Positions 4,860-39,203 of a DNA stretch of 64,000 bases are shown here, one piece after another. The translations under genes and the position numbers were made by a program. How positions within the stretch are numbered: the stretch's first letter is position 1; every line of letters starts with the position of its first letter. This DNA is from Candidatus Kaiserbacteria bacterium (GTDB lineage Bacteria > Patescibacteriota > Minisyncoccia > Phycocordibacterales > UBA918): assembly GCA_016204695.1 (NCBI GenBank), contig JACQKD010000014.1:18562-82561 (forward strand), read 5' to 3'. The notes under the pieces were generated by a model, which ran no database searches, was not told the DNA's origin, and saw only the letters and a program-made list of their open reading frames with translations.

Positions 4860-5861
4860 TTATGCTTGTAACGCCGACAGTCGCGCGTCGGCAAAGATGA
4901 AATAGGGCTGTATGAGTTCGTGTCGTTTGATATGGGTGAAATAATAGCCCATCACGAATGCATTATACGCCTCGTAAAAATCCAATATTTCCTTGGGCGG
5001 CAGTGTTCTTTTGCGCCGATACGTATCATACATGGCGCCGGCAAGCTCGTCTCCGCCGAATATCCGGACGCAGGCCGCAATACGCGCGGTGGCAAGCGCG
5101 TGATCCACTATGCGGAACGCAGGCATCGGCCAGTACACATCCATGAACACCGGTTTGTTTTCTATGAAGACGATATTCGCCGAATGGCCGTCAATCGTGA
5201 CGGAAGCCGAGCTTTCGGGAAGTTTCTTAAAATAAGGATGCGATGCGTGGAAGTGCACCAGTGCGTTCGCACGACTATCGGTCACCTCCTGCGATATCCC
5301 GCTCGCACTCCGGGCAAAGTCTCTGAAGTTGGACAGGCGGGCAATCATACGCTCGTAGACACTCTTGCCGAGCTCTCGGTTTTGCTCATCGAAATATTTC
5401 TCGTTCGCTCTATCGAGATTGATTAAAAGCTTTTCAGTTATCCGTACCACATCCTCCTTCGTCACTTTCTTGTTCCAAAGACGATTGATGAGCGTGTCGT
5501 CGGCATCGATTCGATTCATCAAAATGAAAAAATCATCCGCAGTATTATGCTCCGAAGGTTTCCAGCCGCCGTTGATTTCCCGCATGCCTTCAAGAGACGT
5601 ATAAATCTCCGGAGCGAATAGATTGTTCCAGGCAAAATCGGCGCGATAGAAATTCTTTCTCTTTAGAGGATCTACAAAATCACCGACAGCTTCGTCCGAT
5701 ACATGCTTGGTCACCTTACGTCCAACATCTTCATACAGGAAAATATCAGAGAGCCATGTCTCTATATGGCGCTCGGGCTTTGGAATGCCGTCTACCAGAC
5801 CCTCCTTGAGAGCTTCCGCCAACTGCATGGAGAAAAGTATACAGGAAAGCAGATGGTACAA
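4860..5861 (-). CDS. hypothetical protein, possibly protein-kinase-like (APH/ChoK-type) phosphotransferase
   Basis: HSANIVFIENKPVFMDVYWP...RIVDHALA loosely resembles the H-x-D-x4-N catalytic loop plus D-x-G of kinase-like folds. This is weak evidence. Confidence 0.35.
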   Translation of the reverse strand: MYHLLSCILFSMQLAEALKEGLVDGIPKPERHIETWLSDIFLYEDVGRKVTKHVSDEAVGDFVDPLKRKNFYRADFAWNNLFAPEIYTSLEGMREINGGWKPSEHNTADDFFILMNRIDADDTLINRLWNKKVTKEDVVRITEKLLINLDRANEKYFDEQNRELGKSVYERMIARLSNFRDFARSASGISQEVTDSRANALVHFHASHPYFKKLPESSASVTIDGHSANIVFIENKPVFMDVYWPMPAFRIVDHALATARIAACVRIFGGDELAGAMYDTYRRKRTLPPKEILDFYEAYNAFVMGYYFTHIKRHELIQPYFIFADARLSALQA

Positions 5862-6653: not shown

Positions 6654-9600
6654 ATGACCGAAAATATCAAACTGTTTTCAGAGATTTCCAAGGACGATGC
6701 GGCGAGTGCCGGGGGGAAGGGTGCGTCGCTCGGTGAGATGACACAAGCGGGGATACCGGTGCCGCCGGGATTTGTGGTACTCGCTGGGGCATTCGAGCAG
6801 TTTCTCGAGGAGACGGATCTGCTTGCGGAAATAGATACGATTCTCCATACGGTACAGAAAGAAGAGATGCATACGGTGGAACATGCATCCGAGAAAATTC
6901 AACAGCTTATCTTGGAAGCCAAGATGCCTGCCGACATTGCCGCAGAAATCGAGAAACAATTTAAAGGGCTGGACACCCCGTACGTCGCAGTCCGATCAAG
7001 CGCGACCGCCGAAGACAGCTTGAGCGCCGCGTGGGCGGGACAGCTCGACAGTTATCTCAACACGACTGCCGATACGCTTCTTCAGAATGTTCAGCGCTGT
7101 TGGGCGTCACTTTTTACGCCGCGCGCTATCTTCTATCGTTTCGAGAAAGATCTGCATACGACGAAAATCTCCGTCGCAGTCGTCGTGCAGAAGATGGTCG
7201 AAAGTGAAGTGTCGGGCATCGCCTTCTCGGTGCATCCGGTGACGGAGGATCGCAACCAGCTCATTATCGAAGCGGGCTTCGGCCTCGGCGAGGCGATCGT
7301 GTCGGGACAGATCACGCCGGACAGCTATGTGGTCGAAAAGAACCCGCGCCGCATTATCGATGTCAGTCCAAGCACGCAGAGCCGCGCGCTCTACCGGGCG
7401 GCAAACGGCGGGAATGAATGGAAAGACATTGCCGAGCCGGAGGCATCCTCGCAGGTGCTTACCGAAGAGCGGATATTGGAACTGGCCGGACTGATTCTCA
7501 ACATAGAAAACCATTACGGTTTCCCCTGCGACATCGAATGGGCGTTTGAAAAAGGGACCTTCTATATTGTCCAAAGCCGCCCCATTACGACACTTTCTTC
7601 CGCATCCCAGGCCACCTCTTTGCCCTTGTCTCTTGATCCGAAGAACTACACCTATGTCGGTTTATACAAATCACCGCCGTCCGCTCTTTGGTATTGGTCA
7701 TCCTGGTATGACGCCGAGCTATCTAAAGAACTGGATATCCCCGAAGAGTTCGAGGCATATTTCGGATTGCGCGGGGGGTACAACTGGTGCCTAAAGAAGA
7801 CAGAGGAAGGTTTTAAAGAATTGGTTGCGGCCAAAGTGGAGGCGGGCGATGTCGGGTACTTCGATTCGATCTATGCGACGCTCGACCGGGAATTCGAGCA
7901 TGCAGAAACATTTGCTAAAGCCCTCGGCACGAAAGTCGAGCGCACAAGCTACGAGGAGTTGGTGGCGCATGGCCGCAAGCTCGCATTCTTCTGCTTTATC
8001 AACTGGCAGATTTCGCAGCAGTTCGATCCTATTTTTAAAGATGCAGCACAAAGTGCCGGGATCAGCGAAGACGCCATACAGAGCTATGTACCCCTCCCCA
8101 AGACGCGTTTGAATGAGCAGCATGACGACGTCGTGGAAATAAAGAAGATGATCGAGTTGAAGGGTCTGTGGGAGCTTCTCAAAGAAGATGCGACCAAAGC
8201 TATATCGGAAATGCAGTCCGATTCGGAGTTGCAGGGACGGATAGACCGCCATCTCAAGACATATGCGTGGCTCAATATCCAAAATTGGATCGGCGAGCCG
8301 CTGACACTTGAAAAGCTCCTGGAGCAAATGACGCTCATTACCTCACACGAGGCAGATCCCATCAAGGCTGCTCCGTCTGGATTCGAGAAATATGTACATA
8401 TCGCCGAACGGATCGGCAAGCTGCGCAATGCCGGGATCGAGGACTTCTCCATCTATATGCACGCCGTCATGCCGCATCTCGAGCAACTTGCAGAACGCGC
8501 AGGTATCACGTACCGAGACCTTCTTCTGCTCACGCCGCTTGAAGTATTTTCCGGAGATTCGCTTGCAACGGATATGCGCGAGAAAATCTCTCGTCGACAA
8601 AACGACAATTGGTGCGTCTATCCGAATCTGGAGACCCGAAGCGTGGAGATAACCGACGACACGGAGGTGATCGCCAATATCGCCGAGCGCTTCTTGCCGA
8701 AGGTCGAAGTCTCCGAGGATGGCAGTATCAAAGGACAAGTGGGTAACAAAGGGAAGGCGATCGGTCCTGTTCGCGTCATTATTGCCACCGATGATTTTCA
8801 TAAGATGCGACCGGGAGATGTGCTTGTCACGCCGATGACCACGCCGGACTTCGTACTCCTCATGCAACAGGCGGCGGCAATCGTGACCGACATGGGCGGA
8901 TTGCTCTGTCATGCGGCAATCGTCTCGCGCGAGCTCAATAAGCCCTGTGTGATCGATACGAAGTTTGCGACACAGATTCTCCGCGACGGCGATATGGTGG
9001 AGGTCGACGCCGACAACGGCGTCGTGCGCCCGCTTATAAACGAGATCACCACCATCGACTGGGAACTGTGGATACGCAGGCAAGATCAGCCGCCATTTCT
9101 TATTTCACTATGGATGCCGATGGAAGGACCGATGATGGCGTCCCGCATTGGCGGAGGATTTACAAAACAGCTCTGCTTGCGATACGCCGACGACACCTTG
9201 TGGATCCGCTCGTCTTCGGACATGAAGCAACTGATGCGGAATATTCGAGAATTTCTCGCCGGTCAGTCTTCGGGTGCTCTGGCAACATTGTTTGCGACTG
9301 CAGATACAATCGCAGAACAGACTCCGGAGTTTATGAAAGAAGTACAGAGGTACCCGGAAGAAAAGTTACTCTCCGATTTTGAGTCGCTCATCAAACGTGT
9401 GGTGGAGATAGCGTTCTATACCACTTCGATGCCGTATTTCGCCATGGAGGCAATCGGCACAGATGAGGTCGAGATACCCAATGCGGAGCAGATACGCACC
9501 GGAGCCGAGAAACTCCGCGCAACGTCCTTTTACGTCGAACTTAAGACAAAAGTACTCGACCGGATAGTCCGGGCATTCGCCAAGAAATATACTATCGACG

Positions 9601-10136
9601 CACATTTGGTGTTCTCCATGACAGTGGACGAAATGCGCGAGACAATGAAAGCCGGTATGCTCGCTGTCGCCTCAAGTGAGCTGGTATCGCGAGAAAATTG
9701 CGCCCATTGGTACATGGGCGACAAAATAGTTTTTTCGACCGATCCGAAACTGATGGAAACGCTCCGAAACAAAGTCATCGACGTACCGGATGACGCGAAA
9801 AGCACCCGGTCCGTCAAAGGCGCTGTCGCTTTCCCCGGAAAGGTGACGGGTACGGCGCGGATCGTCATGGTGCCTGCAGATATGGCGAAAGTACGAAAAG
9901 GAGACATTCTCGTGGCGCCGACGACCAATCCTACGCTTATGCCCGCGCTTATGACTTGTGGCGCGATCGTCACCGACGAGGGCGGCATCGCAAGCCATGC
10001 CGCGATCGTCTCGCGCGAGCTTCGAAAGCCCTGTGTCGTGGGCACCAAATACGCGACACATATCATCGCCGAAGGAGATACGGTGGAAGTCGACGCGGAT
10101 CAAGGTATAGTGAGAGTATGCCTACCAAGTACATAA
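6654..10136 (+). CDS. multidomain PEP-utilizing-enzyme family phosphotransferase: N-terminal PPDK_N ATP-grasp domain plus two PEP-utilizing mobile (swivel phosphohistidine) domains; rifampin-phosphotransferase/PEP-synthase-like
   Basis: N-terminus [10 protein letters not shown]...[12 protein letters not shown]...VVVQKMV matches PEP synthase/PPDK nucleotide-binding domain. Two copies of the mobile domain are present: ...[10 protein letters not shown]...[49 protein letters not shown] and ...[10 protein letters not shown]...[49 protein letters not shown]. There is no PEP/pyruvate TIM-barrel domain. Confidence 0.85.
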   Translation: [1160 protein letters not shown]

Positions 10137-11194
10137 GTACCGACTACTATTTTCATTTCCAGACCGGCAAGGTGCATTTTCTGCTTGCCGACATGTTTGC
10201 GCACTATTACAGCGACTTTGACGGCGTGATGCTCTCCGGTAAGGATCAGTACTCTGACTACATACACAAAAGCGGCATTGCCGAAACCGAACGAGTATAC
10301 AAGGATTTTTACAAAGACAACGATTCCCTGCGACAAATCGGTGACACGTTTGATCGCGCGGAGAAAGAGCTCCTCGATCAGCAGTCAGCCATCGCAACGA
10401 CAGAAAAGATCACTTCTGCCGACTTTGAGTCGTTTATCACATCAGCCGCGGCCATATTGGATGCATATGCGGCGTTCGACCATATTTTCACCGACCATTT
10501 ATTTAAGGACAAGCGGGAGGATATCGAAGGACTCGTTCGGGTCGCCACAGAAAAAAAGAACGTACTGCGCGAACGCATCGACCCGATTCTTTTTGGCGAT
10601 GGCACGTTCGTCGCGCTGGTGCGGAAGATCGCGAGTCAATACGGCGTTCCCGAGGATCGTATTTTCGCCGCGTCGATAGACGAAGTGCGCGAACTGCTCG
10701 CTTTCGGAAAAATGCCGGAACGAGACATACGAAACAGCGACTATGTCGTGGTCCGGGATCATGACACATATACGTATTACTTCGGAGATGAAGCGACCGC
10801 GTTTATCGCAGGATTTATCGTGGAGGAGCATCACGGGGAGGTCGGAGAGTTGAAGGGCGTATCGGTTTCCAAGAAAGGCGTCTATACGGGAACGGTGAGA
10901 AAAACATCCGTCGACTATACAAATCTCAAGGGAAGCATCGCGGAGTTTGAACACATTCCTGCAGGAATGATTCTTGTCACAGAAATGACCGTTCCGGAGA
11001 TGGTCTCGTTGATGGCTCGCTCGAAGGCAATCGTTACCGACATCGGCGGTATGCTCTGTCATGCGGCCATCACGAGCCGCGAGCTTGGCATCCCCTGCAT
11101 CATCGGCACGAAGCTCGCGACCAAAATTCTCCAGGACGGAGACGAAGTGGAAGTCGACGCGGACAAGGGGATTGTAACAATACTTACACAATAA
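10118..11194 (+). CDS. PEP-utilizing enzyme mobile-domain protein (unknown N-terminal domain plus C-terminal swivel phosphohistidine domain)
   Basis: C-terminus GVYTGTVRK...[49 protein letters not shown]. Start at internal ATG 10118 (MPTKYIS), overlapping the upstream gene end by 19 nt; the ORF-track start 9956 lies inside the upstream gene. Confidence 0.75.
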   Translation: [358 protein letters not shown]

Positions 11195-11204
11195 CTACAC
11201 AAGA

Positions 11205-12644
11205 ATGTCTCACGTTACGTATAAGGGTTTGCAGTTCGATCTTGCCTTTAAGGAATTCCATCCCCCATTACCGCTTTCGTTCTGGTCGAGTGACATATTT
11301 CTTCAGACGTATCAGCGGATAAGCGGTACCGACGTTGGTTTTATATATGCGGTAGTAGATTCTGAACTTACTGGCTATATGGAGACTGGCGGGTCGGAGC
11401 GTATCTGGGCAGCGTTGCAGGCCACACTGACGGAGGAATGGCTCCGTGGGGAACTAGAAAACTTTACACGGCAGTTCGCACATCTGAAGGCGCTTGTCGA
11501 TCCGGCTCGCACAAGCGTCTATTCACGAGGAGCACTAGTTGACCTTTTCGAATCTCTTCGCAAAACACTCGGAGAAATCTACCCGTACAGCAATGCGTTT
11601 TACGTATTGAGCAGTGAGATTGAGAAAAACGTACTTGAGAAACTCAGCAGCGCCTACGGGGAAGAGAGGGCGAACGAGATACTGGCGCAATCGAGCAGGC
11701 CCTCCCCGTCGACATCTTTGGTCACATACTGGGAACGTGTACGGTTTCTGGCCGATCGCATAGCGGGTACGCACGGAAAGGTCAAGGAGAAAGATGTTGC
11801 GGACTTGTGCGAGAATCATGACGACCTCCGAGACGAACTGGAAACCATTCGAAACGACTATTTTTGTCTGACAGCTTTAAATGCAGAAGAACGGACGGTC
11901 GCATCGATCCTCCCGGACATTGTATCCGTGATGGAGACGCCGATGCATGTAGCGGCGCCTGCGCGACCACCTGAAGTCGAAAAAGATCTATCTCTCCTTC
12001 GCACGATGATCTACTTCAAAGATGAGATATCGACCTTCATTATTCCGTATGTCTTTCATGGTCTCAAGAAACAATGGGACGCTACAGCGGCCCTGCTTGC
12101 GATTACTCCGAAAGATCTCGAGCAACTACTCATGGAAGAAGTGATAGGCGCTCTGAAACATCCCACCGAGCTGACAGAACTCGTCGAAAAAAGAAAACGG
12201 GCGACGCTTTTCTTCCATGCTCCGTTTAAGAGCACGGAAGTTATCGAAGGCACCGAAGCATCGGACGTAATCGCTTCGCTCGCCTCACAAAATCAGACGA
12301 CAGATTACTCCACCGTTACGGAAATCAAAGGAAAGGCGGGCGCTCCCGGCACGGTCACCGGTATTGTCCATAAAATCATGCACTCCAATGACATCCAGAA
12401 TTTTAAAGAAGGACACATTCTGGTGACGGTGTACACTGCACCGGAATTTGTTCCCGCCATGAAGAAGGCACGGGCCATCGTGACCGATACTGGAGGAATT
12501 ACCTGTCACGCGGCCATCGTCTCACGCGAACTCCACAAACCCTGTGTTGTAGGCACAAAAATCGCCACTGAAGTGCTCAAAGACGGAGACGAAGTGGAAG
12601 TCGACGCGGACAAGGGGATTGTAACAATACTGCACAATGAGTGA
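11205..12644 (+). CDS. PEP-utilizing enzyme mobile-domain protein (paralog)
   Basis: C-terminus [16 protein letters not shown]...[49 protein letters not shown]. Confidence 0.75.
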   Translation: [479 protein letters not shown]

Positions 12645-14079
12645 TCGGCCCTTCCCCGCAGAGGATTGGACATTTGAGTTCCAACAGAGAGGCGCTCATC
12701 CCGTCGTGATGGCCGATATCTGGTGTCGGGCGGTGTATTTCAATTTTCCCCGAGCCATAGATCTGGGTACCGTGGGCTACGACTATCTGATGACTTCCGA
12801 GTACAAGGGTTATTACCGGGCCGGAGCGCGGGAGCAAATGTTGGAAATATTCAAGGAACGGCTACAGAGTGACCCGACGTATCTCAACTACATTCTCGAT
12901 TCAACCGAAAGAAAAGCCGGGGACTTCAAGTCGTATGTGGCAGGCGGTGAGTGGGACTGGAATGCGTTTATTGAAAAGACACTCGAACTTGTCCCATGGT
13001 TCTACATACCTTGGTACGTAATGGAGTTCAACATACTGTCCGACCGAGTCGTCGGGGGTCTTGAACCGTATCGCCATACCATTGAAAACATCGTCGACTT
13101 CAATACTGCGAGCATGTTGCTGATGTTCCCCGATAAGGAAATGGAGTTCCAGAGAGAACAGGCCGCGTTCTATGCGCTTGTAACAGAAGTGAAGGAGGGT
13201 AGAGACATCGATCCTCGATCGTATCTCGAACGATTCGGCTGGATGAAAACCTTTATCCTTGCTCCCGAGGAGCCGCTCACCGAACAGGAACTAAACAAAA
13301 AGATTAAAACTGCCATTGCAGAGAGGAGCGATGAAACCTACGAACTCCAGCGGAAAAGGAGAGACGGAGACAGGGGGACGATTGTCGAACTCGAATCGCT
13401 CATCGCCGGAGACAAAAGATTGCGCCGAAGCATAGATGATGCTCGCCATCTTGGGTGGCTCCTCACCTGGAGCGTGGAAACTTCGATGCGGGCTTTCGCG
13501 ATGGGCATTCCCCGGTACAAAGAGATCGCAGACAGAATCGGACTTCTATATGATGATTGGGTATACCTCACGACTACCGAGGTTGAGCAATCTATCGCCG
13601 AAAGAAAATGTGTTGTCTCTCGCGAAGAAATAGATGCCCGCAAAGAAGCGTGGATCGTGTCGATACACGATGGTGTATTGGATATCGTGTCCGGAAGCAA
13701 AGCGAAAGAAAATATCGAGCAATTGCATATGAAGGAGACATCGAATGTTCAAAAGGATACGCAGGAAGTCGTCGGAAAACAGGCCTGCGCAGGGAAAGCA
13801 AATGGTCATGTGAGAATATGCTTGACCGCAACTGATGCGGAAGCGGTACGAGAAGGAGACATTCTGGTATGCAGTATGACCACCCCCGATTATGTCCCGG
13901 CCATGAAGCGGGCCGGGGCGATCGTCACCGATGAGGGTGGACTGCTTTGTCACGCGGCGATTATCTCTCGCGAACTCGGGAAGCCATGCGTGATCGCGAC
14001 ACGGATCGCGACGACCGTATTCAAGACCGGGGACGAGGTGGAAGTGGATGCCGATAAGGGGATTGTGAGAAAAGTATGA
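12637..14079 (+). CDS. PEP-utilizing enzyme mobile-domain protein (paralog)
   Basis: C-terminus [11 protein letters not shown]...[49 protein letters not shown]. The start overlaps the upstream stop by 8 nt. Confidence 0.75.
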   Translation: [480 protein letters not shown]

Positions 14080-15098
14080 ATTCGCGCCCGTATACCAAAC
14101 TGTTCACGCGCGACAACGGCCTACTGGTCTTCGAGCTGTGGTATGAGAGCGAGGTAAACCATTTGGAGAAATGGTTGGGATGGGCGCCCAAGAGCTATCT
14201 ACTGCACGCGGTCGAAGGCGTCACCGAAGTCTATTATGATCCGGCTGATCTCGAAGAACTGAATCGCCGGATTGCCGCGAAGCTGAAAGACACCGACTTT
14301 CTTCCAAATCTCATTTCCTGGTACAAAGAAGCGCTTGTGCCGCTTCAACGTGCGTGGAAAGAAAGGAAACCGTTGGGGAGCACGAAAGCGCTCGTCGAGC
14401 TTTTTGATAAGGGTGCTCTCGCCTGGTCGGGACTCGCGATCACGTACTTGATACCGAATCTACCGGAAGGCGAAGCGAGTCGTGACCAGACCTCTGCGGC
14501 ACTCGCGGCGCGTACGGAGACGGAGAATTTTTTTGATGATACCGACCAAGTCTTCCTCATGACACTGCGAGCGTTATTTCCCAGTCTCGGTACACGTTCA
14601 CGATATATTCTCGCAGACGAATTACGCAGAGACGCCATTCCGGAAGAAGATGTGCTCGCGAAGCGCGAGAAACATTTCATCTTCTACCGCGGCACGCTAT
14701 ATACCGACATGACTCTGGAGATGTTTGCGCATGACCACGACATCCGTCTCGAAGAAGAAACCATATCGCAATCCGGCGAGATCAAAGGACAGATCGCCAT
14801 GGGCGGAACCGCTATCGGAAAAGTCCGCGTAATTCTGAAAAAACAGGACATACCGCAGGTCGAAGAAGGAGAAATATTGGTCACCACCATGACAACTCCC
14901 GACTACCTCCCCGCAATGAAAAGAGCGGCGGCGTTTGTCACCGACGAGGGCGGCATCACGTCGCATGCGGCGATCATCGCGCGCGAATTCAAAAAGCCCT
15001 GCATCGTCGGCACCAAAATCGCGACGAAGTTCCTCAAGACCGGCGACACGATAGAAGTGGATGCCGACAAGGGGATCGTGCGAATTTTGGAAAGATAA
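14076..15098 (+). CDS. PEP-utilizing enzyme mobile-domain protein (paralog)
   Basis: C-terminus [12 protein letters not shown]...[49 protein letters not shown]. ATGA start/stop overlap with the upstream gene. Confidence 0.75.
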   Translation: [340 protein letters not shown]

Positions 15099-15730: not shown

Positions 15731-16735
15731 GTGGTATACTGGCGGGGCATGACACAAATGTTCTTGCGGATTGCCGCGGCGGCATTCTGCATTCTGGCGG
15801 TCGGTATATCCGTACCGCTTGGCGCGCGAGCGGACGATGGATACTCCGACAGCGCCTATCAATCAGCAATCGAAAAACTCGGCGGGAAAAAAGTGAAGCG
15901 TCTGCCCGTCCCCATTCTTTTCGGCGTACCGCGTTCGGCAATCATACCGAATTTCGGCGCTCCGCGCGGCGGAGGTGCGCGCACGCATGAAGGCGAAGAT
16001 ATCATGGCGCCGCAAGGCGCGCCGATCGTCTCTCCCACCAAAGCGATCGTCGTAGATGCGGGTACGGGACCGAGCGCCGGCAATTATGTCACGACGATGG
16101 GTCCCGGCGGTGAACGTTTTGTCTATATGCATCTTGATACCATCCTTGTAGAGAAAGGAGACGAGCTTCGGGTGGGGGATTTCATCGGATACGTCGGCAA
16201 CACCGGCAATGCGTCGGGCGGCCCCGCACATCTGCATTTCGAGATTCGTCAGGACGGAGTGGCCGCTGATCCGTTTCCGCGCATTGCGCGAGAGTTCTCG
16301 CTCAAGAGCAAGGTTGAGTATCTCAAGCGAGCGCTTGCGTATCTAAAGGAGAAGAAACCGCTGGTGCAATTTGTTACCGTACACTACCAGCAAGAACTTG
16401 CGCAGGCGCAGTCAACCGGTCTCACGCTTCCCAAACAGATCGCAAAAGCGATGAAAGATGCACCCTTACTCGCGCAAACAAGCGTGCCTTCTTCCGGCGA
16501 GTCGGTGCTTGGCTCGCACAAACCGCTCGTCTCAAGCCTGCAGAAACTCCTTATCTTAAAAAACACCGGGCCGGCGGCCAAGGCGCTCGCCGCCGCAGGC
16601 CCTACGGGCAATTTCGGGCCGATAACGCAGAACGCACTGATCGAGTATCAAACTGTTCTCGGTATGCAACCGGCGGACGGACGTCTCGGTACGACGACAG
16701 TTGCATTTATACTCGCAAAAGAAGGGAAGCGGTGA
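15731..16735 (+). CDS. M23 family metallopeptidase with C-terminal peptidoglycan-binding domain
   Basis: HEGEDI and GNTGNASGGPAHLHFEI (LytM/M23 zinc ligands); C-terminal PG_binding_1-like repeat (LQKLL...TGNFGPITQNALIEYQ); signal peptide. A possible alternative start is 15749. Confidence 0.8.
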   Translation: MVYWRGMTQMFLRIAAAAFCILAVGISVPLGARADDGYSDSAYQSAIEKLGGKKVKRLPVPILFGVPRSAIIPNFGAPRGGGARTHEGEDIMAPQGAPIVSPTKAIVVDAGTGPSAGNYVTTMGPGGERFVYMHLDTILVEKGDELRVGDFIGYVGNTGNASGGPAHLHFEIRQDGVAADPFPRIAREFSLKSKVEYLKRALAYLKEKKPLVQFVTVHYQQELAQAQSTGLTLPKQIAKAMKDAPLLAQTSVPSSGESVLGSHKPLVSSLQKLLILKNTGPAAKALAAAGPTGNFGPITQNALIEYQTVLGMQPADGRLGTTTVAFILAKEGKR

Positions 16736-16749
16736 TTTTAGGCAGGCCT

Positions 16750-17373
16750 CTAGCGTCGTGGCCGTTTCCACTCGGTGAGTGTGCCGGCTCGTATTTCAAT
16801 ACTGTCAGCCGGACGTAATCGTAGCGCATGAGGTGCGATTTTCTCATGTGGAGCCGCGACGAGGTTATCGTGCACTCCCCAAAGAGGATGCTCGGCGATG
16901 AGCCAGTCATCGTCAAATTCGAGAAGATTGAGAGGATTTCGTGAATACGCGCGGAGTGTTTTTTCTCCGGTATCGAGAAAATATTCGTGAAAATACGACA
17001 TCACAAGTTCGCGCACGCTCGCATACACCGGATCGCGATACCGCAGTACCGCATGATTGGTTTTGCTCACTGCGCCCCAGTGCATCCCCTCACGAAACGG
17101 CGCTATGACGTGTGATTCGTCATGTGTGCCCGTTTCAAGGTCGATAAGAAAGGGAGGACGGCCGTGATACCAAAAGATGGCGGCCGCAAGGACCGCTCCC
17201 TCGAAGCAGTGCGCGGTTCCATGCCGAAGTGTTTGGAGCGGCGATCGACATGTCTCACCCTCCGGTTCGAAGTTGATCGGAAATGAATTGAGAAAATCCT
17301 GCGTCTTTGCAGGCGTAGTCAGCGTTTTGAAAATCTGAAATTCTGCAAGATCCGGAAAAGAAAATTTCCTCAT
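16750..17373 (-). CDS. transglutaminase-like cysteine-protease-fold protein (putative)
   Basis: GTAHCFEGAVLAAAIF matches the G-x-C-x-E/F-A-x-L-x-A motif of the transglutaminase-like superfamily; downstream His/Asp candidates are present. Confidence 0.35.
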   Translation of the reverse strand: MRKFSFPDLAEFQIFKTLTTPAKTQDFLNSFPINFEPEGETCRSPLQTLRHGTAHCFEGAVLAAAIFWYHGRPPFLIDLETGTHDESHVIAPFREGMHWGAVSKTNHAVLRYRDPVYASVRELVMSYFHEYFLDTGEKTLRAYSRNPLNLLEFDDDWLIAEHPLWGVHDNLVAAPHEKIAPHALRLRPADSIEIRAGTLTEWKRPRR

Positions 17374-17450
17374 TCGGCCAGTATAATTCTTTAGGACACT
17401 TCTTGCGACAAATGTGCCAAAGGAGGGTATACTTTCACTAAACTTTAATC

Positions 17451-18311
17451 ATGAGCTGGTACACTGCGAATATACGACCAAGTCCCGTCTACTGGCAGAC
17501 CGGGCGATCGGACGGTCTTGAGCTTCTCTATCCGCCGTTCGCGCTCGCGATTTTGACGCTCTTCGTACGGGCGCGAAGCGAGGGATTGCCGGTGACGATA
17601 TACGAAACGTACCGCTCGCAAGAACGCCAGCTCCAGCTTTTTAACCAAGGCGCGACGAAACTAAAGAAGAACGGCATGCACCACTTCGGTATCGCCGCCG
17701 ATATTGTATTTCTGACGCAGAGCGGCAATCCGAGTTGGGCCGAAACCAACAACTGGGCGCGGATCGGCGCCATCGGCGGAGCGCTCGGTCTCGAGTGGGG
17801 CGGCCTCTGGAGCGGATTCGTGGACAAGCCGCATTTCCAGCTTGTGCCGGCCACCGTGAGCGCGCAGGCAAAGATCGTCGCGGGAGAGTATCCCGCATAT
17901 CCCGCATCCGTTGATACGAAACGTACCGGACTTTTGCAGGCCTACAACGCCGCAAAAGCGAGCGGCTTTACCGCTTCACAGATCTCGAAATTGAGTGCGT
18001 CTCTCTCGGCGCCCGCATCGGCGGCGCAGTCCTTGTTCCCGCGCACACTCGTGCAGGGTATAAAGGGCAAGGATGTGCTCCTCCTGCAAAAGGTGCTCAA
18101 CGCCGATGCGGCGACGCGCATCGCCGCAAGCGGTACCGGTTCCCCCGGTAAGGAAACCGATTACTTCGGCGGACTCACCAAGGCCGCGGTCGGAAAATTC
18201 CAGATAAAATACGGCATCGTCGGTCCGACGAGCACCGCGTTCGGCACGGCAGGCCCGAAAACACGCGGTGTATTGGAACAGGCGGCGGTCGCGTACAGCA
18301 TCTACTCATAA
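17451..18311 (+). CDS. M15 family peptidase (VanY/L-Ala-D-Glu peptidase-like) with C-terminal peptidoglycan-binding domain
   Basis: [25 protein letters not shown] (H-x-x-G-x-A-x-D), LEWGGLW...DKPHFQL (the D-x-P-H-F-E/Q hallmark of M15); C-terminal PG_binding_1-like LLQKVLN...KFQIKYGI. Confidence 0.7.
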
Positions 18312-20126: not shown

Positions 20127-20166
20127 CCGCCCGCGCCTTTCGGCGCGGGCGGCGTGTCTTTTATTC
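20127..20166. terminator. rho-independent terminator (bidirectional hairpin)
   Basis: ccgcccgcgcc-tttc-ggcgcgggcgg hairpin followed by a T-run (tgtcttttatt); A-rich on the opposite strand as well. Confidence 0.6.
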
Positions 20167-20466
20167 ACTTTCTACTCTTCAGGAGTTTCCGCCTCTTCTT
20201 CGTCATCGTCCTCACCTTCATCTTCAGGAGCTATTACCTCATCTTGCATCAGATCCGGATTGGTGTCTGTAGTGTCGTCCATCATAAGCCATTTGACGAT
20301 TACTTGATAAGAATGCTAACAAAACGCGCGGAGCACCTAAACATTACACGCGTCTAACATACAGCTACGACCGATGGCACATGGCCGCATCAAGTATAGC
20401 AAGCGATACCAAGCCCGCAAGAGCACATGAAAGATGGCCGGATGGCCGCGACACGAACGGACGTAT

Positions 20467-20482
20467 GGTATACTGACTCCGT
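20467..20482 (+). promoter_or_regulatory. extended -10 promoter (TGgTATACT) ending 8 nt before the htrA-like ATG; leaderless transcript inferred
   Basis: tgg TATACT gactccgt ATG. Confidence 0.35.
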
Positions 20483-21727
20483 ATGGAACGCGGTGGCGCA
20501 CCACGAGGGCTGTTGTCAATCGTCGTGTCGGCGGCGGTAACCGCCGCCGTCACGACGATTGCCGTCTTCTGGTTGATCGAAACGCATCCTCAATCATTCA
20601 CACAGCTTTTACGCATTCCGCCCGCGAACACCGAAGAAACACTCGGCGTCGATTCTTCCGACACCGCCGAGACGGCAGTGATTGACGCGGTGAAGAAAAC
20701 AAGTCCGGCCGTCGTTGCGATCACTATTTCGAAAAACGTTCCGGTCTACGAGCAATACTATGAAAGCGTACCGAGTCCTTGGAGCGACTTCTTCGGGGAC
20801 GGCTTCAACTTCAGCGTGCCCCGCATGCGTGAGAAGGGGACCGAAAAAAAAGAAGTCGGCGGCGGGTCGGGTTTCCTCGTTTCCGAGGATGGCTACATCA
20901 TTACCAACCGCCATGTCGTCTCGGACGAAGAAGCGGAATATATGGTGTTTATGAACGACGGCAAGCAATACCCCACGACCGTCGTCGCCCGCGACCCGGT
21001 ACTCGATCTTGCCGTCATCAAGATTGAACCGGAAACATTAGGGGGCGGATTCCCCTACCTTTCTTTCGGCGACTCCGATGCGATTCAGGTGGGACAGACC
21101 GTCATCACGATCGGCAACGCGCTCGCCGAATTTCGCAATACCGTATCGGTCGGCGTGGTATCGGGCCTCGCGCGCTCGATCGTCGCATCCGATCATAGCG
21201 GACAGTCGGAAGCTCTCGACCAGCTTATTCAGACCGACGCCGCCATCAACCAAGGCAACTCCGGCGGGCCGCTCCTCAATCTCTCAGGCGAAGTGGTCGG
21301 CGTCAATGTCGCGGTCGCGAGCGGCGCGGAGAATATCGGGTTTGCCGTGAGCGGCAACAGTGCCAAGAGCATTATTGAGTCGGTACAGCGGACCGGCAGG
21401 ATTGTACGCCCCTATCTCGGCGTACGATACGTACCGGTGACACCCGAGCTGAAAGAGAAGAACAATCTGCCGACAGACTACGGCATGCTTGTCTCGGGCG
21501 GCGTGAGATCCGATGAGCTTGCGGTCATTCCCGGCTCGCCGGCGGACAAGGCGGGCATCGTGGAAAATGACATCATTCTCGAAGTGGATCGTATGAAACT
21601 CACTCCCGACAAAAATCTCGCCGCCATCATACGCGGCAAAAAGGTGGGCGACACCGTCGATCTCAAAGTACTCCACAAGGGAGAAGAGAAAAACATCCGC
21701 GTCACTCTCGAAGAAATGAAATCCTGA
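20483..21727 (+). CDS. HtrA/DegP family serine protease with PDZ domain
   Basis: N-terminal TM segment, trypsin-like catalytic motifs (HV..D, GNSGGPLLN), C-terminal PDZ-like region. Confidence 0.85.
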   Translation: MERGGAPRGLLSIVVSAAVTAAVTTIAVFWLIETHPQSFTQLLRIPPANTEETLGVDSSDTAETAVIDAVKKTSPAVVAITISKNVPVYEQYYESVPSPWSDFFGDGFNFSVPRMREKGTEKKEVGGGSGFLVSEDGYIITNRHVVSDEEAEYMVFMNDGKQYPTTVVARDPVLDLAVIKIEPETLGGGFPYLSFGDSDAIQVGQTVITIGNALAEFRNTVSVGVVSGLARSIVASDHSGQSEALDQLIQTDAAINQGNSGGPLLNLSGEVVGVNVAVASGAENIGFAVSGNSAKSIIESVQRTGRIVRPYLGVRYVPVTPELKEKNNLPTDYGMLVSGGVRSDELAVIPGSPADKAGIVENDIILEVDRMKLTPDKNLAAIIRGKKVGDTVDLKVLHKGEEKNIRVTLEEMKS

Positions 21728-24873: not shown

Positions 24874-25839
24874 ATGTCAAATGCCGTTGAAGTAAAAAAT
24901 CTGGTGAAGCGATATAAGAAAGCGGAGAGAAATGCTGTCGACGACGTGTCGTTTTCCGTCAGCGAGGGAGAGTTTTTCACACTGCTCGGTCCCAATGGCG
25001 CGGGAAAGACGACCACCATTTCCATACTCACGACCATGCTCACCAAAACCGCCGGCACGGTGACGATCGGCGGATATGACATAGATAAGCATGAAAAGAC
25101 GATCCGCGAACGCATCGGCGTGATTTTCCAAGCGCCAAGCATAGACATGAATCTCACCGCCGAAGAAAACATCCGCCTCCACGCTTCACTCTACGGCCTC
25201 TATACTTTCATGCCCATGTTTTCAATAATGTCGGAAGCGTACAAAAAGCAAGTGCTCATGCTCGCCGAGCTGATCGGCATAAAGGATGCGCTGTTTGATC
25301 CGATAAAAACATTTTCCGGGGGCATGAAGCGCAAACTTGAGATCGTACGCGGACTGATGCATCGGCCCGCCGTGCTCTTTCTGGATGAACCGACGACCGG
25401 CCTCGATCCGGTGAGTCGCCGGACGCTTTGGGAATACCTCCACGACGTGCGCAGACGCGAGCGCACCACCGTCTTTCTCACGACCCATTACCTCGACGAG
25501 GCCGAGAACGCCGATCACGTCTGCGTGATCGATGAGGGGAAGGTGCTCCTCTACGGTACGCCGCGCGACATGAAAGACCGGCTCGTACAAGAGTATCTTC
25601 TGCTTGACGCGGATGACCGCGACGGACTGCTCCGCGATCTCTCGGCATGGCGGACGCAGATCGTCGACGAGCACGCGCGTCCTCTGCGGATCCGTCTCCG
25701 CAACAACGAACAGGCGCAAGAGATCATTCGCGCCGCGGGCGTATCGTTTTCGCACCTCGATATCGAGCATCCGACACTCGAAGAAGCGTATGTAAAACTT
25801 ATCGAAAAAAGCACGGCGGAAACGCCCGCAACCGTATGA
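24874..25839 (+). CDS. ABC transporter ATP-binding protein (ABC-2 exporter type)
   Basis: Walker A GPNGAGKTT, signature SGGMKRK, Walker B LFLDEPTTGLD, H-loop. Confidence 0.9.
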   Translation: MSNAVEVKNLVKRYKKAERNAVDDVSFSVSEGEFFTLLGPNGAGKTTTISILTTMLTKTAGTVTIGGYDIDKHEKTIRERIGVIFQAPSIDMNLTAEENIRLHASLYGLYTFMPMFSIMSEAYKKQVLMLAELIGIKDALFDPIKTFSGGMKRKLEIVRGLMHRPAVLFLDEPTTGLDPVSRRTLWEYLHDVRRRERTTVFLTTHYLDEAENADHVCVIDEGKVLLYGTPRDMKDRLVQEYLLLDADDRDGLLRDLSAWRTQIVDEHARPLRIRLRNNEQAQEIIRAAGVSFSHLDIEHPTLEEAYVKLIEKSTAETPATV

Positions 25840-29178: not shown

Positions 29179-29886
29179 ATGCTGATTCTCACAAAAAACA
29201 TTCTGGAGAAAGAGTACTGTAACAACAAAAAATCAGTCGCTGAGATAGCTAAATTTTTTAATTGTTCGCAACACAAAATAAACTATTGGCTGGGTAAGTA
29301 TCACATTCCTAAAAGAAAAATTTCGGAAGCGATGTATATCAAATGGAATCCGAGGGGTGATCCTTTTGCCTTTAATAACCCACAAACCTTAGACAAAGCA
29401 TTCCTATGGGGATTGGGACTCGGATTATTTTGGGGAGAAGGTAATAAGAAGAACACGGACTCGGTCCGACTGGGTAACGTGGATCCCGGACTTATACGAA
29501 CGTTTTTAAAGTTTCTTGACGAGATCTATACTATTGATCATGCACGACTGAGATTCGGGCTTCAGACTTTTACCGACATTGGTGAGAATGCGGCAGTCGC
29601 TTATTGGTGTCGGGAGTTGCGAGCAAACCGCCGACAATTCTATAAAGTTACAGTCACGCGCTCTGGAAGTCTTGGAACATATCGAGAAAAAAGTAAGCAC
29701 GGAGTTCTAACTATCTATTTCCACAACAAAAAACTTCGTGATAGTATCGTCAATGCGATTGGGGAATTGGGTTCTGGTTCCATTCGCAAAAGTGCCATCT
29801 TAGCTCAGTTGGTAGAGCGCGTCCATGGTAGATCGCAAAAGATCTCTGCCCTTTGGGACAGAAACGTCCCATCGAATCCCGAATAA
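29179..29886 (+). CDS. HTH plus degenerate LAGLIDADG-like (putative homing endonuclease) protein; the 3' end runs into the tRNA-Thr(GGU) 5' exon
   Basis: N-terminal HTH-like KSVAEIAKFFNCSQHKINYWL; central AFLWGLGLGLFWGEGN resembles a single LAGLIDADG motif (acidic E in the catalytic position) followed by an I-CreI-like FLKFLDEIY region. The locus is AT-rich. The exact C-terminus is uncertain because the frame stays open through the tRNA exon into the intron. Confidence 0.4.
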   Translation: MLILTKNILEKEYCNNKKSVAEIAKFFNCSQHKINYWLGKYHIPKRKISEAMYIKWNPRGDPFAFNNPQTLDKAFLWGLGLGLFWGEGNKKNTDSVRLGNVDPGLIRTFLKFLDEIYTIDHARLRFGLQTFTDIGENAAVAYWCRELRANRRQFYKVTVTRSGSLGTYREKSKHGVLTIYFHNKKLRDSIVNAIGELGSGSIRKSAILAQLVERVHGRSQKISALWDRNVPSNPE

Positions 29887-30096: not shown

Positions 30097-30681
30097 TTAT
30101 AACGGCTTAAAGAGTGCTTGGAGCGCTTCTTTCTTTTCAGGGTACAGCTTCGCTTCATACAATACCGGCGCGATCTCTTTCTCGGAGAAATGTTTACTCG
30201 TGCCAATCTCAACAAACTCATCGAACGTAACCGGCTTGAGTGTGATCCTTTCGCCGGCATCGAGATGCATGTCCGCGATTTTGGTGAGACCTTTTGCGAT
30301 GAAACTGAAAACGACGTAGTCAATCTTCGAGGTAGGGTGGTGAGCATCCCATAGGGTAAACTCGGATGCTTCATATCCGCTTTCTTCGAGGAGCTCGCGC
30401 TTTGCCGCGTCGAGGATATCCTCACCCTCATCAACCCGACCTCCGGTTGCCGCAATAAAAGACGCTTTCCCGGGCTGTTCTTGCTCGGTCAGTACGATCT
30501 TCCCGTCGTCGAGCACCGGAAACACGACGACCGTGTCGGCTCGTTTCAGTTTTTCAAACATTGTTTTCGTGCCGTCGAAAAGCTCCTGCTCCCATTGGTA
30601 GACATCGAAGATGACCCCGTCAAAGACTTTTTTCGCATGATCAGGGATCGGCTGATCCGACGGCGGTCGAGAGATATGCAT
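30097..30681 (-). CDS. Nudix hydrolase (ADP-ribose pyrophosphatase-like)
   Basis: Nudix box GGRVDEGEDILDAAKRELLEESG. Confidence 0.75.
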   Translation of the reverse strand: MHISRPPSDQPIPDHAKKVFDGVIFDVYQWEQELFDGTKTMFEKLKRADTVVVFPVLDDGKIVLTEQEQPGKASFIAATGGRVDEGEDILDAAKRELLEESGYEASEFTLWDAHHPTSKIDYVVFSFIAKGLTKIADMHLDAGERITLKPVTFDEFVEIGTSKHFSEKEIAPVLYEAKLYPEKKEALQALFKPL

Positions 30682-31853: not shown

Positions 31854-32729
31854 ATGGAAAAAGAGGACATCAACGCACGCATAGCGACACTTGAAATCGC
31901 GATGACGCGAGCCGATTTTTGGAGTGATCCGAAGGCGGCGCAGGCGATGATCAAAGAACTCAATACGCTCAAAGAGCAGGCGGCGGGAAAGGAAAAATAT
32001 GATCGCACCAACGCAATCTTCACCATCGTCGCGGGCGCGGGAGGAGACGACGCTGAAGATTTCGCCCGGATGCTCGTCTCGATGTACCAGAAATACGCTG
32101 AAAAACGCGGCTGGAGCGTCAACATGCTCGATGAGAATAAGAACGATCGGGGCGGTTACCGCAACATCGTTTTTGAAGTGGCGGGGAAGGACGCCTACGG
32201 GATGCTAAAACGCGAGTCGGGCGTGCATCGCCTCGTGCGAATGTCGCCCTTCAATGCATCGGGAAAACGACAGACCTCGTTTACGCTTGTGGAAGTGTCG
32301 CCGAAAGTCGAGCCGGGTGAAGTGAAGCTCAATGAAGAGGATCTGGACGTGAGTTTCGCCCGCGCCGGAGGCGCGGGCGGCCAAAATGTCAACCGCCGCG
32401 AGACCGCCGTGCGCATTGTGCACAAGCCGACCAACATTTCCGTCCACGTCTCCTCCGAGCGCAGTCAGCAACAAAACCGCGAACGGGCGCTCGCACTCCT
32501 TGCCGGCAAGTTGTACACATTCGAAGAAGCGCAACACAAACGCGAAATGCAGGGTCTTTCCGTCGAAAAGACCGTGAAAATCGAGTGGGGAAGCCAGATA
32601 CGCTCGTACGTACTCCATCCCTATCAGCTCGTCAAGGACCACCGCACCGACACCGAAGTGCGCAATGTCGACGCCGTACTGGACGGCGATATAACAACTT
32701 TTCTAGACGCGGAACGAGAGCTGGGATAG
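31854..32729 (+). CDS. prfB: peptide chain release factor 2 (RF2), short N-terminus, no programmed +1 frameshift site
   Basis: SPF tripeptide ([15 protein letters not shown]), GGQ motif ([19 protein letters not shown]), C-terminal [15 protein letters not shown]. In-frame candidate starts are 31818, 31845 and 31854. I chose 31854 because a TATAAT box (31841-31846) lies 7 nt upstream and the protein then aligns with E. coli RF2 just after the usual frameshift point. Confidence 0.8.
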
Positions 32730-32775: not shown

Positions 32776-33456
32776 ATGATCTACTTTGATAAAGTCTCGA
32801 AAATCTACGGAGAGGAATCGATAGCCCTTGAAGACGTCACCTTTGAAGTCGCCCCGGGCGAATTTCTTTCCATCGTCGGCCACTCCGGCGCAGGCAAGAC
32901 GACACTCATAAAAATGCTCATCGTCGAGGACCGGCCGACCGCCGGTACCGTCTATTTCGAATCGAAAGATGTGCACGCCATTCCGCGCCGCCAGCTCCCG
33001 CGCTATCGCCGCAAGATCGGCACGGTATTTCAAGATTTCAAATTGCTCCCGCACAAAACCGCCTATGAAAACATCGCCTTCGCCATGGAGGCCAACGGCC
33101 GCAGTGACGAAGAGATAGAAGAAAACGTGCCGCAGGCGCTCGGACTCGTGGATCTCGCGGACAAGATCTGGAATTTCCCGCACCAGCTTTCCGGCGGCGA
33201 AAAACAGCGCGTCGCGATCGCGCGCGCCATCGTCAATCAGCCCGATCTCATCATCGCCGACGAGCCCACCGGCAATCTCGACCCGATCGCCACGTATGAA
33301 GTCGTGCAGATCCTCAAAAAAGTCAACGACCTCGGTACCACGATCATCATGACCACGCACAACAAGGGCGTGATCGATGCGCTCGGGAGACGCGTCATCA
33401 CCATGGACCGCGGACGCATTGTGCGAGACGATAGCGAAGGCAAGTATGTGCTGTAG
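32776..33456 (+). CDS. ftsE: cell division ATP-binding protein FtsE
   Basis: Walker A GHSGAGKTT, signature LSGGEKQR, Walker B LIIADEPTGNLD; followed by ftsX. Confidence 0.85.
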   Translation: MIYFDKVSKIYGEESIALEDVTFEVAPGEFLSIVGHSGAGKTTLIKMLIVEDRPTAGTVYFESKDVHAIPRRQLPRYRRKIGTVFQDFKLLPHKTAYENIAFAMEANGRSDEEIEENVPQALGLVDLADKIWNFPHQLSGGEKQRVAIARAIVNQPDLIIADEPTGNLDPIATYEVVQILKKVNDLGTTIIMTTHNKGVIDALGRRVITMDRGRIVRDDSEGKYVL

Positions 33457-33467
33457 AATAAGATTCT

Positions 33468-34409
33468 ATGTGGACTGCATGTAAGCGGATAATAAAAGCG
33501 GGAGTGGTCGGATTTTGGCGCGATGCGTTCGTCTCCTTCACCTCCGTACTTGTCATCACAGTCGCGCTCTTCATGGTCGCCACCACGCTTTTCAACAATC
33601 ACGCCCTCGAAGTGGCGCTCGAAGACCTTGAAGAGAAGGTGGACATCAATATCTACTTCACCATCACCGCCACCGAGGAAGAAATTACGGCGTTCCAAGG
33701 ATTACTCGAAGGACTGCCCGAGGTCGCGGAAGTCACCTATACGTCGCGCAGTCAGGCGCTTGAAGAATTCCGTGCGCGACACGAGGGTGACGAGCTGATC
33801 ATCAAGGGACTCAAAGAGCTTGACGACAATCCGCTCGGCGCGTCGTTGTCCGTCCGTGCAAAGGAGACGTCGCAGTACGAAGGTATCGCGACATTCGTCG
33901 TCGCCCAGCATGAAAATCCGCCATCGGGCACCTCTATCATCGACCGTGTCAATTACAATCAAAATAAAAAAGCGATCAGCCGCCTCAACGACATCATCAA
34001 CTCCACCCGCAACGACAACACCACCAAAGCGATTCTCCTCATCGCCATCGCGCTTTTTGTCTCGTTCAATACGATCCGGCTTGCAATCCACAATGCCCGC
34101 GAGGAGATCGGCGTCATGCGGCTCGTCGGCGCAAGCAACACGTTTATCAGTATGCCGTTTATGGTATCGGGCATCCTGCAGGGGCTGATTGCGGGAGTGC
34201 TCGTGGTGCTTCTCCTGTACCCGGCGCTTATTTTCTATGAAAGCGCTTTCTATCCGTTTCCGTTTTTCGACGAGGCGGGATACGGCAAGCTTCTCTTCGG
34301 CTATTTCGTCATCAACTTCGCCGCCATATTCTTCACCATCGTCGGTAGCGGCATCCTCATTGGAGCGATTTCCAGCTTTCTCGCGGTGCGGCGGTATCTC
34401 AGAATATAG
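33468..34409 (+). CDS. ftsX: cell division permease-like protein FtsX
   Basis: N-terminal TM, large periplasmic loop, three C-terminal TM helices; position downstream of ftsE. Confidence 0.8.
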   Translation: MWTACKRIIKAGVVGFWRDAFVSFTSVLVITVALFMVATTLFNNHALEVALEDLEEKVDINIYFTITATEEEITAFQGLLEGLPEVAEVTYTSRSQALEEFRARHEGDELIIKGLKELDDNPLGASLSVRAKETSQYEGIATFVVAQHENPPSGTSIIDRVNYNQNKKAISRLNDIINSTRNDNTTKAILLIAIALFVSFNTIRLAIHNAREEIGVMRLVGASNTFISMPFMVSGILQGLIAGVLVVLLLYPALIFYESAFYPFPFFDEAGYGKLLFGYFVINFAAIFFTIVGSGILIGAISSFLAVRRYLRI

Positions 34410-36390: not shown

Positions 36391-36423
36391 GGACGCATCA
36401 AATGATGCGTCCACCTATTTTTT
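36391..36423 (+). terminator. rho-independent terminator abutting tRNA-Gln
   Basis: ggacgcatc-aaat-gatgcgtcc followed by acctatttttt. Confidence 0.5.
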
Positions 36424-36493
36424 GCCGGGTCGTCTAATGGTAGGACTCGGGACTTTGAATCCCGCTATCTTGGTTCGAATCCAAGCCCGGCAG
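36423..36493 (+). tRNA. tRNA-Gln (anticodon UUG)
   Basis: Acceptor tgccggg/cccggca with U1-A72 (typical for bacterial tRNA-Gln), anticodon stem cggga/tcccg with loop ctTTGaa, T arm cttgg-ttcgaat-ccaag, discriminator G. Confidence 0.8.
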
Positions 36494-36707
36494 CAATATG
36501 TATTGGAGCTTTGCCGTAGTAAATAATAGATTAGCGGAAGTATTCTTTGATAAGACCAAAAAGGGTACGACAAAAATCCACGGACATTGCTATGTCAAGA
36601 AGGAAGAATATAAAACCAAAAAAGAACAATTGTGGATCAAGAAAGACTGCGAACGAATCCGTCTTGTATACAGAAACAAAAAGTATCGTAAAATAGGATA
36701 GCTCGCT

Positions 36708-38393: not shown

Positions 38394-38412
38394 TTTTATC
38401 ATTACTTCTTAT

Positions 38413-38796
38413 ATGCAAGAACAACTGGATACTGCGGGGGAGTTTTCGCTGGTGAGGCGGGCGAGGAGTTTTGTGCATGCGGGGAGGGGCATTTGGGTAT
38501 TTTTGAAAACCACGCCGAATGCATGGATTGAAATCACCATATTCATCGGAGCGGTAGCGGCCGGTATCGTCGTCGGCCTCACCTATATCGAATGGATCCT
38601 GCTCGTATTTGCCGCAGGATTCGTTCTCGTGTCCGAGGCCTTCAATACGGCCATAGAAATAGACATCAACCTCACCTCTCCCGAATACCATCCCTATGCC
38701 AAAGATACGAAAGATGTCGCCGCAGGCGCGGTGCTCATCGCCTCCATCACCGCCCTCATCATCGGTCTCGCCATCTTCGGCCACCATCTGCTATAG
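38413..38796 (+). CDS. dgkA: diacylglycerol kinase family protein (DgkA/undecaprenol kinase-like)
   Basis: VSEAFNTAIEIDIN and YHPYAKDTKDVAAGAVLIA match prokaryotic DAGK motifs; three TM helices. Confidence 0.75.
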   Translation: MQEQLDTAGEFSLVRRARSFVHAGRGIWVFLKTTPNAWIEITIFIGAVAAGIVVGLTYIEWILLVFAAGFVLVSEAFNTAIEIDINLTSPEYHPYAKDTKDVAAGAVLIASITALIIGLAIFGHHLL

Positions 38797-39150: not shown

Positions 39151-39203
39151 GGCAGAGATATATCAAACCGCATGAAAATCTTCGCTATATAATTCATCCG
39201 TAT

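Follow-up and report, generated by a model that had tools for sequence, protein, structure and literature searches.

The window, the whole stretch of 64,000 nucleotides analysed here, comes from the metagenome-assembled genome of a Candidatus Kaiserbacteria bacterium (Parcubacteria, CPR), has a G+C content of about 52% and carries nearly all of its genes on the plus strand. A TATAAT/TATACT-type box stands a few nucleotides ahead of the start codon at 13 good sites in this 64-kb window, three of them on the minus strand, and at three weaker sites inside operons. The start codon is ATG at all 16 sites. The 13 good sites are:

261–278, plus strand: TATAAT, 9-nt spacer, ATG of the nucleoside 2-deoxyribosyltransferase (NDT) gene (276–683); start as in NCBI record MBI4087060
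2409–2425, plus strand: TATACT, 8-nt spacer, ATG of the gene for a 317-aa membrane protein (2423–3376); start as in MBI4087064 and in the Logan call
5826–5841, minus strand: TATACT, 7-nt spacer, ATG of the gene for a 322-aa hypothetical protein (4860–5828); start as in MBI4087067
15735–15751, plus strand: TGgTATACT, 8-nt spacer, ATG of the M23 peptidase gene (15749–16735); start as in MBI4087075
17371–17385, minus strand: TATACT, 6-nt spacer, ATG of a 207-aa gene (16750–17373); start as in MBI4087076
20469–20485, plus strand: TGgTATACT, 8-nt spacer, ATG of the HtrA-like protease gene (20483–21727), the site flagged at the outset; NCBI record MBI4087081
24860–24876, plus strand: tgTATAAT, 8-nt spacer, ATG of the ABC transporter ATPase gene (24874–25839); start as in MBI4087084
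30679–30696, minus strand: TGgTACAAT, 9-nt spacer, ATG of a NUDIX hydrolase gene (30097–30681); start as in MBI4087091
31841–31856, plus strand: TATAAT, 7-nt spacer, ATG of prfB, a short release factor 2 (RF2) gene (31854–32729, 291 aa)
39188–39206, plus strand: TATAAT, 10-nt spacer, ATG of the gene for a 334-aa hypothetical protein (39204–40208); start as in MBI4087102
46284–46299, plus strand: TATACT, 7-nt spacer, ATG of a second NUDIX gene (46297–46746); start as in MBI4087111
46825–46839, plus strand: TATACT, 6-nt spacer, ATG of a MazG-like pyrophosphohydrolase gene (46837–47142); start as in the Logan call
57889–57904, plus strand: TATACT, 7-nt spacer, ATG of purQ (57902–58591); start as in MBI4087124

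The weaker sites, and boxes standing further from a start in a short-leader arrangement, are:

10106–10120, plus strand: weaker; TATAGT, 6-nt spacer, ATG of the second PEP-utilizer gene; the site lies within the 3'-terminal part of the preceding gene
33454–33470, plus strand: weaker; TAGAAT (which includes the ftsE stop codon), 8-nt spacer, ATG of ftsX
38397–38415, plus strand: weaker; TATCAT, 10-nt spacer, ATG of the diacylglycerol kinase gene (38413–38796)
17428–17453, plus strand: short leader; TATACT 17 nt ahead of the ATG of the 17451 gene
41373 and 61352: comparable short-leader boxes (15 and 35 nt, respectively)

The box at 10106–10120 is either an internal promoter or a chance match, while the ftsX arrangement was also found in a related locus (L161). 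In the same locus the ortholog of the ABC transporter ATPase gene carries TATAAT, again at 8-nt spacing. The minus-strand site at 17371–17385 has a divergent promoter region in common with the plus-strand 17451 gene. About 600 nt without an accepted gene lie upstream of the membrane protein site at 2409–2425, and a gap of 630 nt lies upstream of the purQ site.

Seven of these sites had been quoted in the original prediction (those of the HtrA-like, ABC ATPase, prfB, 39204, 46297 NUDIX, purQ and NDT genes). All seven strings are present verbatim at their coordinates, with spacers of 8, 8, 7, 10, 7, 7, and 9 nt, respectively. As had been claimed, no Shine-Dalgarno (SD) sequence lies between box and ATG, the spacers being too short for, and free of, a GGAG-type motif. 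GGAG and GAGG are likewise missing from the spacers of 6–10 nt at the sites as a whole. The count of "at least seven" such starts was correct but the list was incomplete, as 13 good and 3 weaker sites were counted here. One label did not hold: the 334-aa product of the 39204 gene had been called a guanidino-enzyme, an identity that we reject because no family match was found in Pfam or NCBIfam.

The original prediction had proposed counting -10-like hexamers against shuffled controls. In the window, the pattern TATAMT-N{6,10}-ATG occurred 16 times, compared with 2.19 ± 1.78 times in 100 dinucleotide-preserving shuffles, none of which reached 16. Starts were also chosen blindly: for 68 ORFs the first ATG was used, and any TAnnnT hexamer with at most one mismatch to TATAAT was counted as a box. 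By this rule 11 of the 68 genes had a box at a spacer of 6–9 nt (binomial p ≈ 3e-10). The same genes had none at 0–5 nt and, at greater distances from the start, about 1.4 in each 5-nt bin (about 0.3 per position), and over all ATGs in the window the box rate was 1.1–1.6%. When hexamer enrichment between positions -20 and -3 was determined without assuming any motif, TATACT ranked first (6 observed, 0.18 expected).

The arrangement was also found in relatives. Upstream of prfB, the window was compared with five loci whose RF2 proteins are 75–80% identical and whose genes had been called independently by JGI, NCBI or Logan. Only TATA.T and the ATG were invariant columns; the spacer between them was 7–8 nt, while the spacer sequence and the flanks had diverged and even the upstream neighbour gene differed. 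Among the independently called genes of these five loci, 22 of 110 had a box at a spacer of 6–9 nt, with a peak at 7–9 nt. A further 80 related metagenomic loci were reached via the neighbouring GH18 protein (41–76% identity) and evaluated with the blind start rule. Here 155 of 571 genes had a box at a spacer of 6–10 nt, peaking at 6–8 nt; the counts at spacers of 6, 7, 8, 9, and 10 nt were 64, 31, 30, 20, and 11, compared with about 3.3 at each position farther from the start. In the GH18-linked loci, TATACT and TATAAT were equally dominant. In the relatives the box preceded 31% of first starts that were ATG, compared with 4–7% of those that were GTG or TTG. Proteobacteria-labelled control loci run through the same pipeline gave no box signal, and Chloroflexi-labelled loci showed a modest box peak at a spacer of 6 nt. 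In distant CPR genomes the box of htrA was not conserved gene by gene, some starts having an SD sequence and some a box, which indicates that the box is specific to a lineage and not to a gene. As judged from these sequence comparisons, the box–ATG pattern is a property of the lineage and not of particular genes.

Whether an mRNA transcribed from the box would be leaderless depends on the ATG being the true start. All seven ATGs of the original prediction are starts in NCBI protein records (MBI4087060, MBI4087081, MBI4087084, MBI4087102, MBI4087111, MBI4087124, and the 291-aa RF2), so that the NCBI annotation had already placed starts at these box-proximal ATGs. By exact look-up, 15 of 16 starts agreed with NCBI records, as did the RF2 start; the translations of RF2 and of sixteen further genes of the window were identical to NCBI records in the range MBI4087060–MBI4087124. 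Pfam domain boundaries or a PDB alignment back five of the seven claimed starts. Three of these starts (276, 31854 and 39204) give proteins shorter than the longest-ORF reading. A longer NDT ORF was rejected, as the Pfam NDT match is at profile position 3 five residues into the protein that begins with Met 276. A 360-aa reading of RF2 was likewise rejected: its homologs have 289–294 aa (nearly all of the closest 120), and the PDB alignment runs from Met 31854, which aligns at about residue 24 of the 366-aa chain of solved RF2 structures. The gene contains no frameshift leader. The 538-aa reading of the 38592 ORF was discarded because its upstream part overlaps the diacylglycerol kinase gene (38413–38796) in another frame.

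The best surviving alternative accepts the boxes as real promoters but holds that some annotated ATGs are wrong, and that downstream start codons leave the transcripts with ordinary leaders. The Logan products of htrA and the M23 peptidase are indeed shorter, at 349 and 325 aa, respectively, the start of the MazG-like gene is placed at 46837 by Logan and at an ATG at 46816 by NCBI, and in several box-gene proteins there is no known domain by which to fix the N-terminus. Against this, the Pfam domains of NDT, the ABC ATPase, NUDIX and PurQ begin only 2–23 residues past the Met taken as the start, and the RF2 homologs are uniform in length and aligned from Met 31854. Moreover, the looked-up starts match NCBI records with the single exception noted above, the position of the ATG co-varies with that of the box in orthologs, and the downstream alternative starts are in general not preceded by an SD sequence. 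We therefore regard misplaced starts as an unlikely explanation of the pattern and keep the box-proximal ATGs as the starts on which the leaderless reading is built.

Several properties of the box are those of a promoter. Of the 41 exact copies of TATAAT or TATACT in the window, 18 fell into intergenic DNA, which makes up 10% of the sequence, and these are oriented toward the gene that follows. Fifteen of these were on the plus strand and three on the minus strand, two of the latter serving minus-strand genes. Twelve of the 18 stood 6–10 nt from a start; the others lay 15–97 nt upstream of genes, except one without a nearby gene. As the box also occurred at variable distances (11–97 nt) before other genes, the same element appears to serve short-leadered genes too. 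With curated starts, a close box was present at 13 of 35 transcription-unit heads (37%) and at 3 of 34 internal genes in the window (Fisher p = 0.009).

The bases ahead of the hexamer point in the same direction. In the 80 related loci they were T (55%), G (61%), and G (44%), corresponding to the extended -10 motif TGn, which is a contact of RNA polymerase/sigma. Hexamer enrichment in the related loci also yielded GGTATA, GCTATA, and GTTATA. Among the window sites, those at 15735, 20469, and 30696 have TGg ahead of the box, and those at 261, 5841, and 24860 have TG directly abutting it. No -35 consensus was found in the window or the related loci, and because this element is absent a classic two-hexamer promoter scan of the window missed all box sites. 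A pyrimidine occupies position -1 at 14 of 15 window sites. Bacterial promoters have been described with a YRY start element, Y(-1)R(+1)Y(+2), and a preferred -10-to-TSS distance of 7 bp (PMC12641261); the Y-A-T at the window sites fits this element, and the box spacing fits this distance.

Terminators were found close to the boxes. The transcription unit upstream of the HtrA-like gene ends in a strong terminator hairpin (20127–20152), and a hairpin with a T-rich tail (30735–30704) lies directly upstream of the box of the minus-strand NUDIX gene. In loci L162, L164 and L165, terminator hairpins with T-runs end 2–7 nt before the box. With a terminator abutting the box, there is no space for a more distal promoter that would add a leader, which places the transcription start between box and ATG. 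Over the first 40 coding nucleotides, predicted folding was alike for box and non-box genes (p = 0.9), with reduced structure at the 5' end in both.

A second alternative takes the box as an SD-independent ribosome-binding or translation-enhancer signal in leadered mRNAs, similar to the "group B" signal of Bacteroidetes, with promoters lying further upstream. SD motifs are essentially unused in the lineage, so that some other signal for start selection would be needed. In addition, the contrast between head and internal genes was weaker in the GH18-linked relatives than in the window (29–42% vs 19%): the box preceded 19% of genes less than 30 nt from the upstream gene, genes that would count as internal, and 42% of genes with gaps of 30–59 nt. 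The box before 19% of the closely spaced genes is not expected under a pure operon-head model; it calls for promoters embedded in the 3' ends of the preceding genes in these compact genomes, or else leaves a small opening for a translational role. Nevertheless, the consensus matches the sigma-70 -10 element exactly and is preceded by the extended -10 TGn, the same box stands at variable distance before other genes, and terminators adjoin it. It was also four times commoner at unit heads than at internal genes of the window, and most internal genes have neither box nor SD. A signal of the group B type stands at a fixed distance before all genes, but 31 of the 34 internal genes in the window lacked the motif. 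A translation signal is thus very improbable as the general function of the box, and we retain its reading as a promoter element.

The weakest alternative, a chance or composition artefact of A/T-rich intergenic DNA beside ATG codons, can point to the higher A/T content of intergenic compared with coding DNA and to matches that are clearly not gene starts (4950–4967 and 20380–20398 on the minus strand, 25201–25218, 29527–29542), but it is refuted by the shuffles and by the sharp positional peak relative to flanking upstream positions of the same genes, and with the box conserved across orthologs and no signal in the proteobacterial controls its probability is practically nil.

It is thus very likely that the boxes are sigma-70-type -10 elements that give rise to leaderless, SD-free mRNAs, the transcription start being placed by promoter geometry. 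This part of the original prediction is supported by all of the sequence and comparative evidence gathered, with start sites that are inferred. TATAAT/TATACT would be the -10 element of housekeeping (sigma-70-type) promoters that have no recognisable -35 element and often an extended -10 TGn. RNA polymerase would begin transcription at the A of the ATG or 1–3 nt before it, the resulting mRNAs would have neither a 5' leader nor an SD sequence, and the ribosome and initiator tRNA would bind directly to their 5'-terminal AUG to begin translation. About 13 of the 35 transcription-unit heads in the window would be arranged in this way. Window spacers of 7–10 nt slightly exceed the canonical 6 nt, and several transcripts may therefore carry 1–3 leader bases; for the 39204 gene, the probable transcription start is the A two bases ahead of the ATG.

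The original prediction had further claimed that leaderless and SD-dependent initiation coexist, and for this part we found no support. The two SD examples that it quoted exist as strings (AGGAGG before the GTG at 36117 and GGGGAG before the ATG at 23399), but they do not serve as evidence for coexistence, as SD-like motifs were not positionally enriched in the window or in the relatives. An SD-like string was present at 3 of 69 window genes, approximately the chance level by our estimate. When scanned by position, SD-like 4-mers did not peak at any distance from the window starts and rose slightly at best in the GH18-linked relatives; applied to Chloroflexi- and Saccharibacteria-labelled loci, the scan produced clear peaks at 4–9 nt. 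Most internal genes of the window had neither SD nor box, and many of them overlap or abut the upstream gene. A 16S rRNA 3' end was found neither in the window nor in the related sequences searched, and an Rfam scan of the window returned two tRNAs only. The Kaiserbacteria group appears, from its gene starts, to make almost no use of SD pairing.

Leaderless gene starts are known from other bacteria. In the GeneMarkS-2 classification, "group C" genomes have a Pribnow box 6–8 nt from the starts of first operon genes in 25–50% of operons; the group is frequent in Actinobacteria and Deinococcus-Thermus, with Mycobacterium tuberculosis, Streptomyces, Corynebacterium and Deinococcus deserti as examples (PMC6028130). 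The window resembles group C in having the box close to the start (here 6–10 nt) without an SD sequence in between, in its weak or absent -35 element, and in the share of units concerned (37%). However, the remaining genes of group C genomes are expected to use SD sites, an expectation that fails in the Kaiserbacteria window, where SD enrichment is absent. It also differs in that TATACT is co-dominant with TATAAT, and in its phylogenetic position, CPR/Patescibacteria being absent from the clades named in PMC6028130. In the archaeon Haloferax volcanii most transcripts are leaderless and the leadered ones mostly lack an SD sequence (PMC3986360). The window is similar in combining leaderless-type unit heads with leadered or internal genes without SD, but the leaderless fraction is lower, and a bacterial -10 box at about 7 nt takes the place of the archaeal TATA/BRE promoter about 26 nt upstream.

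A similar arrangement came from another CPR class, the Saccharibacteria, where Candidatus Nanosyncoccus (L037) has TGnTATAAT-N6-ATG before many genes. Its other genes, in contrast to those of the window, carry a strong AGGAGG at 5–9 nt, which makes it a true mixed regime. In Parcubacteria, the anti-SD motif is missing from the 16S rRNA in about half of the members (Tsurumaki et al., 2022; PMC9297842). A lineage without a functional anti-SD would be expected to show no SD signal, as was the case in the SD scan of the window and its relatives; PMC9297842 itself covers the rRNA feature only and not promoter-proximal starts. A literature search covering CPR, Patescibacteria, Saccharibacteria, Parcubacteria and Kaiserbacteria returned no paper tying leaderless mRNAs to CPR, and a TM7x transcriptome preprint does not discuss 5' ends. 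None of the literature searched reports leaderless gene starts for the Kaiserbacteria group.

The prediction of gene starts in CPR metagenome-assembled genomes hinges on the model of initiation that is assumed. Where about one third of the transcription units are of the leaderless type and SD is unused, SD-based callers will misplace starts, and disagreement is already visible in the window between Logan and NCBI for htrA and the M23 peptidase. The box–ATG arrangement also offers ready promoter and 5'-end designs for future CPR genetic tools. For an uncultured group whose ribosome is reduced, it yields a concrete and testable picture of how promoters are built (TGnTATA[A/C]T, no -35 element) and how translation is initiated, and it ties in with the anti-SD loss reported for some of the Parcubacteria. 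Tentatively, and with somewhat less than even confidence, we propose that Kaiserbacteria and allied Parcubacteria have abandoned SD pairing, with leaderless unit heads and other genes initiated by an SD-independent route, which could be, for example, termination–reinitiation coupling or recognition of an accessible start codon. Such an SD-free regime would resemble that of haloarchaea more than that of typical bacteria, and the reduced CPR ribosome, with its loss of the anti-SD, short bS1, and missing uL1/uL30, might be connected with it.

The divergent intergenic region at window positions 17374-17450 (77 nt) contained the following -10 boxes:

17385-17380, minus strand, TATACT, overlapping the plus-strand TATAAT
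17382-17387, plus strand, TATAAT, overlapping the minus-strand TATACT
17428, plus strand, TATACT, the second box on this strand

The overlapping boxes on opposite strands, together with the TATACT at 17428, point to compact back-to-back promoters in this region. An orphan TATACT-N10-ATG was observed on the minus strand at 20380-20398, oriented away from htrA, and the ORF downstream of it comprised only 5 codons; this box may be a divergent promoter of a non-coding transcript, or may have arisen by chance. tRNA-Gln (36423-36494) is immediately preceded by a hairpin and T-run resembling an intrinsic terminator, and no -10 box was evident between this structure and the tRNA (region 36391-36494).

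Release factor 2 (31854-32729) consists of only 291 aa: the N-terminal ~23 residues are missing, as are about 30 residues of domain 1. The programmed +1 frameshift site is absent from the gene. As almost all of the 120 closest homologs were 289-294 aa long, the short length is a family trait. The match of PurL (58563-60146) covered only positions 15-544 of the 723 in the profile; the protein appears to lack its C-terminal quarter, and the gene directly downstream is purM.

Five paralogous genes are arranged in tandem at 6654-15098, each with a PEP-utilizers mobile domain at its end; the product of the first (1160 aa) contains a PPDK_N domain, and near-identical DNA (…gtggaagtcgacgcggacaaggggattgt…) is common to the 3' ends of the genes. 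Between about 36000 and 48000, the G+C content was 0.47-0.49, compared to 0.50-0.56 elsewhere. Given this lower value and its gene content (HEPN-domain, diacylglycerol kinase, C39-peptidase-like and several unassigned genes), the region may have been acquired.

Among all called genes of the 80 related metagenomic loci (L081-L160), the base preceding the start codon was T in 63% and G in 5%, with or without a -10 box; this bias was not obviously present in the window. In the Saccharibacteria comparison locus L037 (Candidatus Nanosyncoccus), genes split cleanly into two classes, one with TGnTATAAT-N6-ATG and the other with a strong AGGAGG 5-9 nt upstream of the ATG, often with TATAAT farther upstream. 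These two classes suggest that leaderless-type starts are in use in oral Saccharibacteria as well, together with Shine-Dalgarno initiation.
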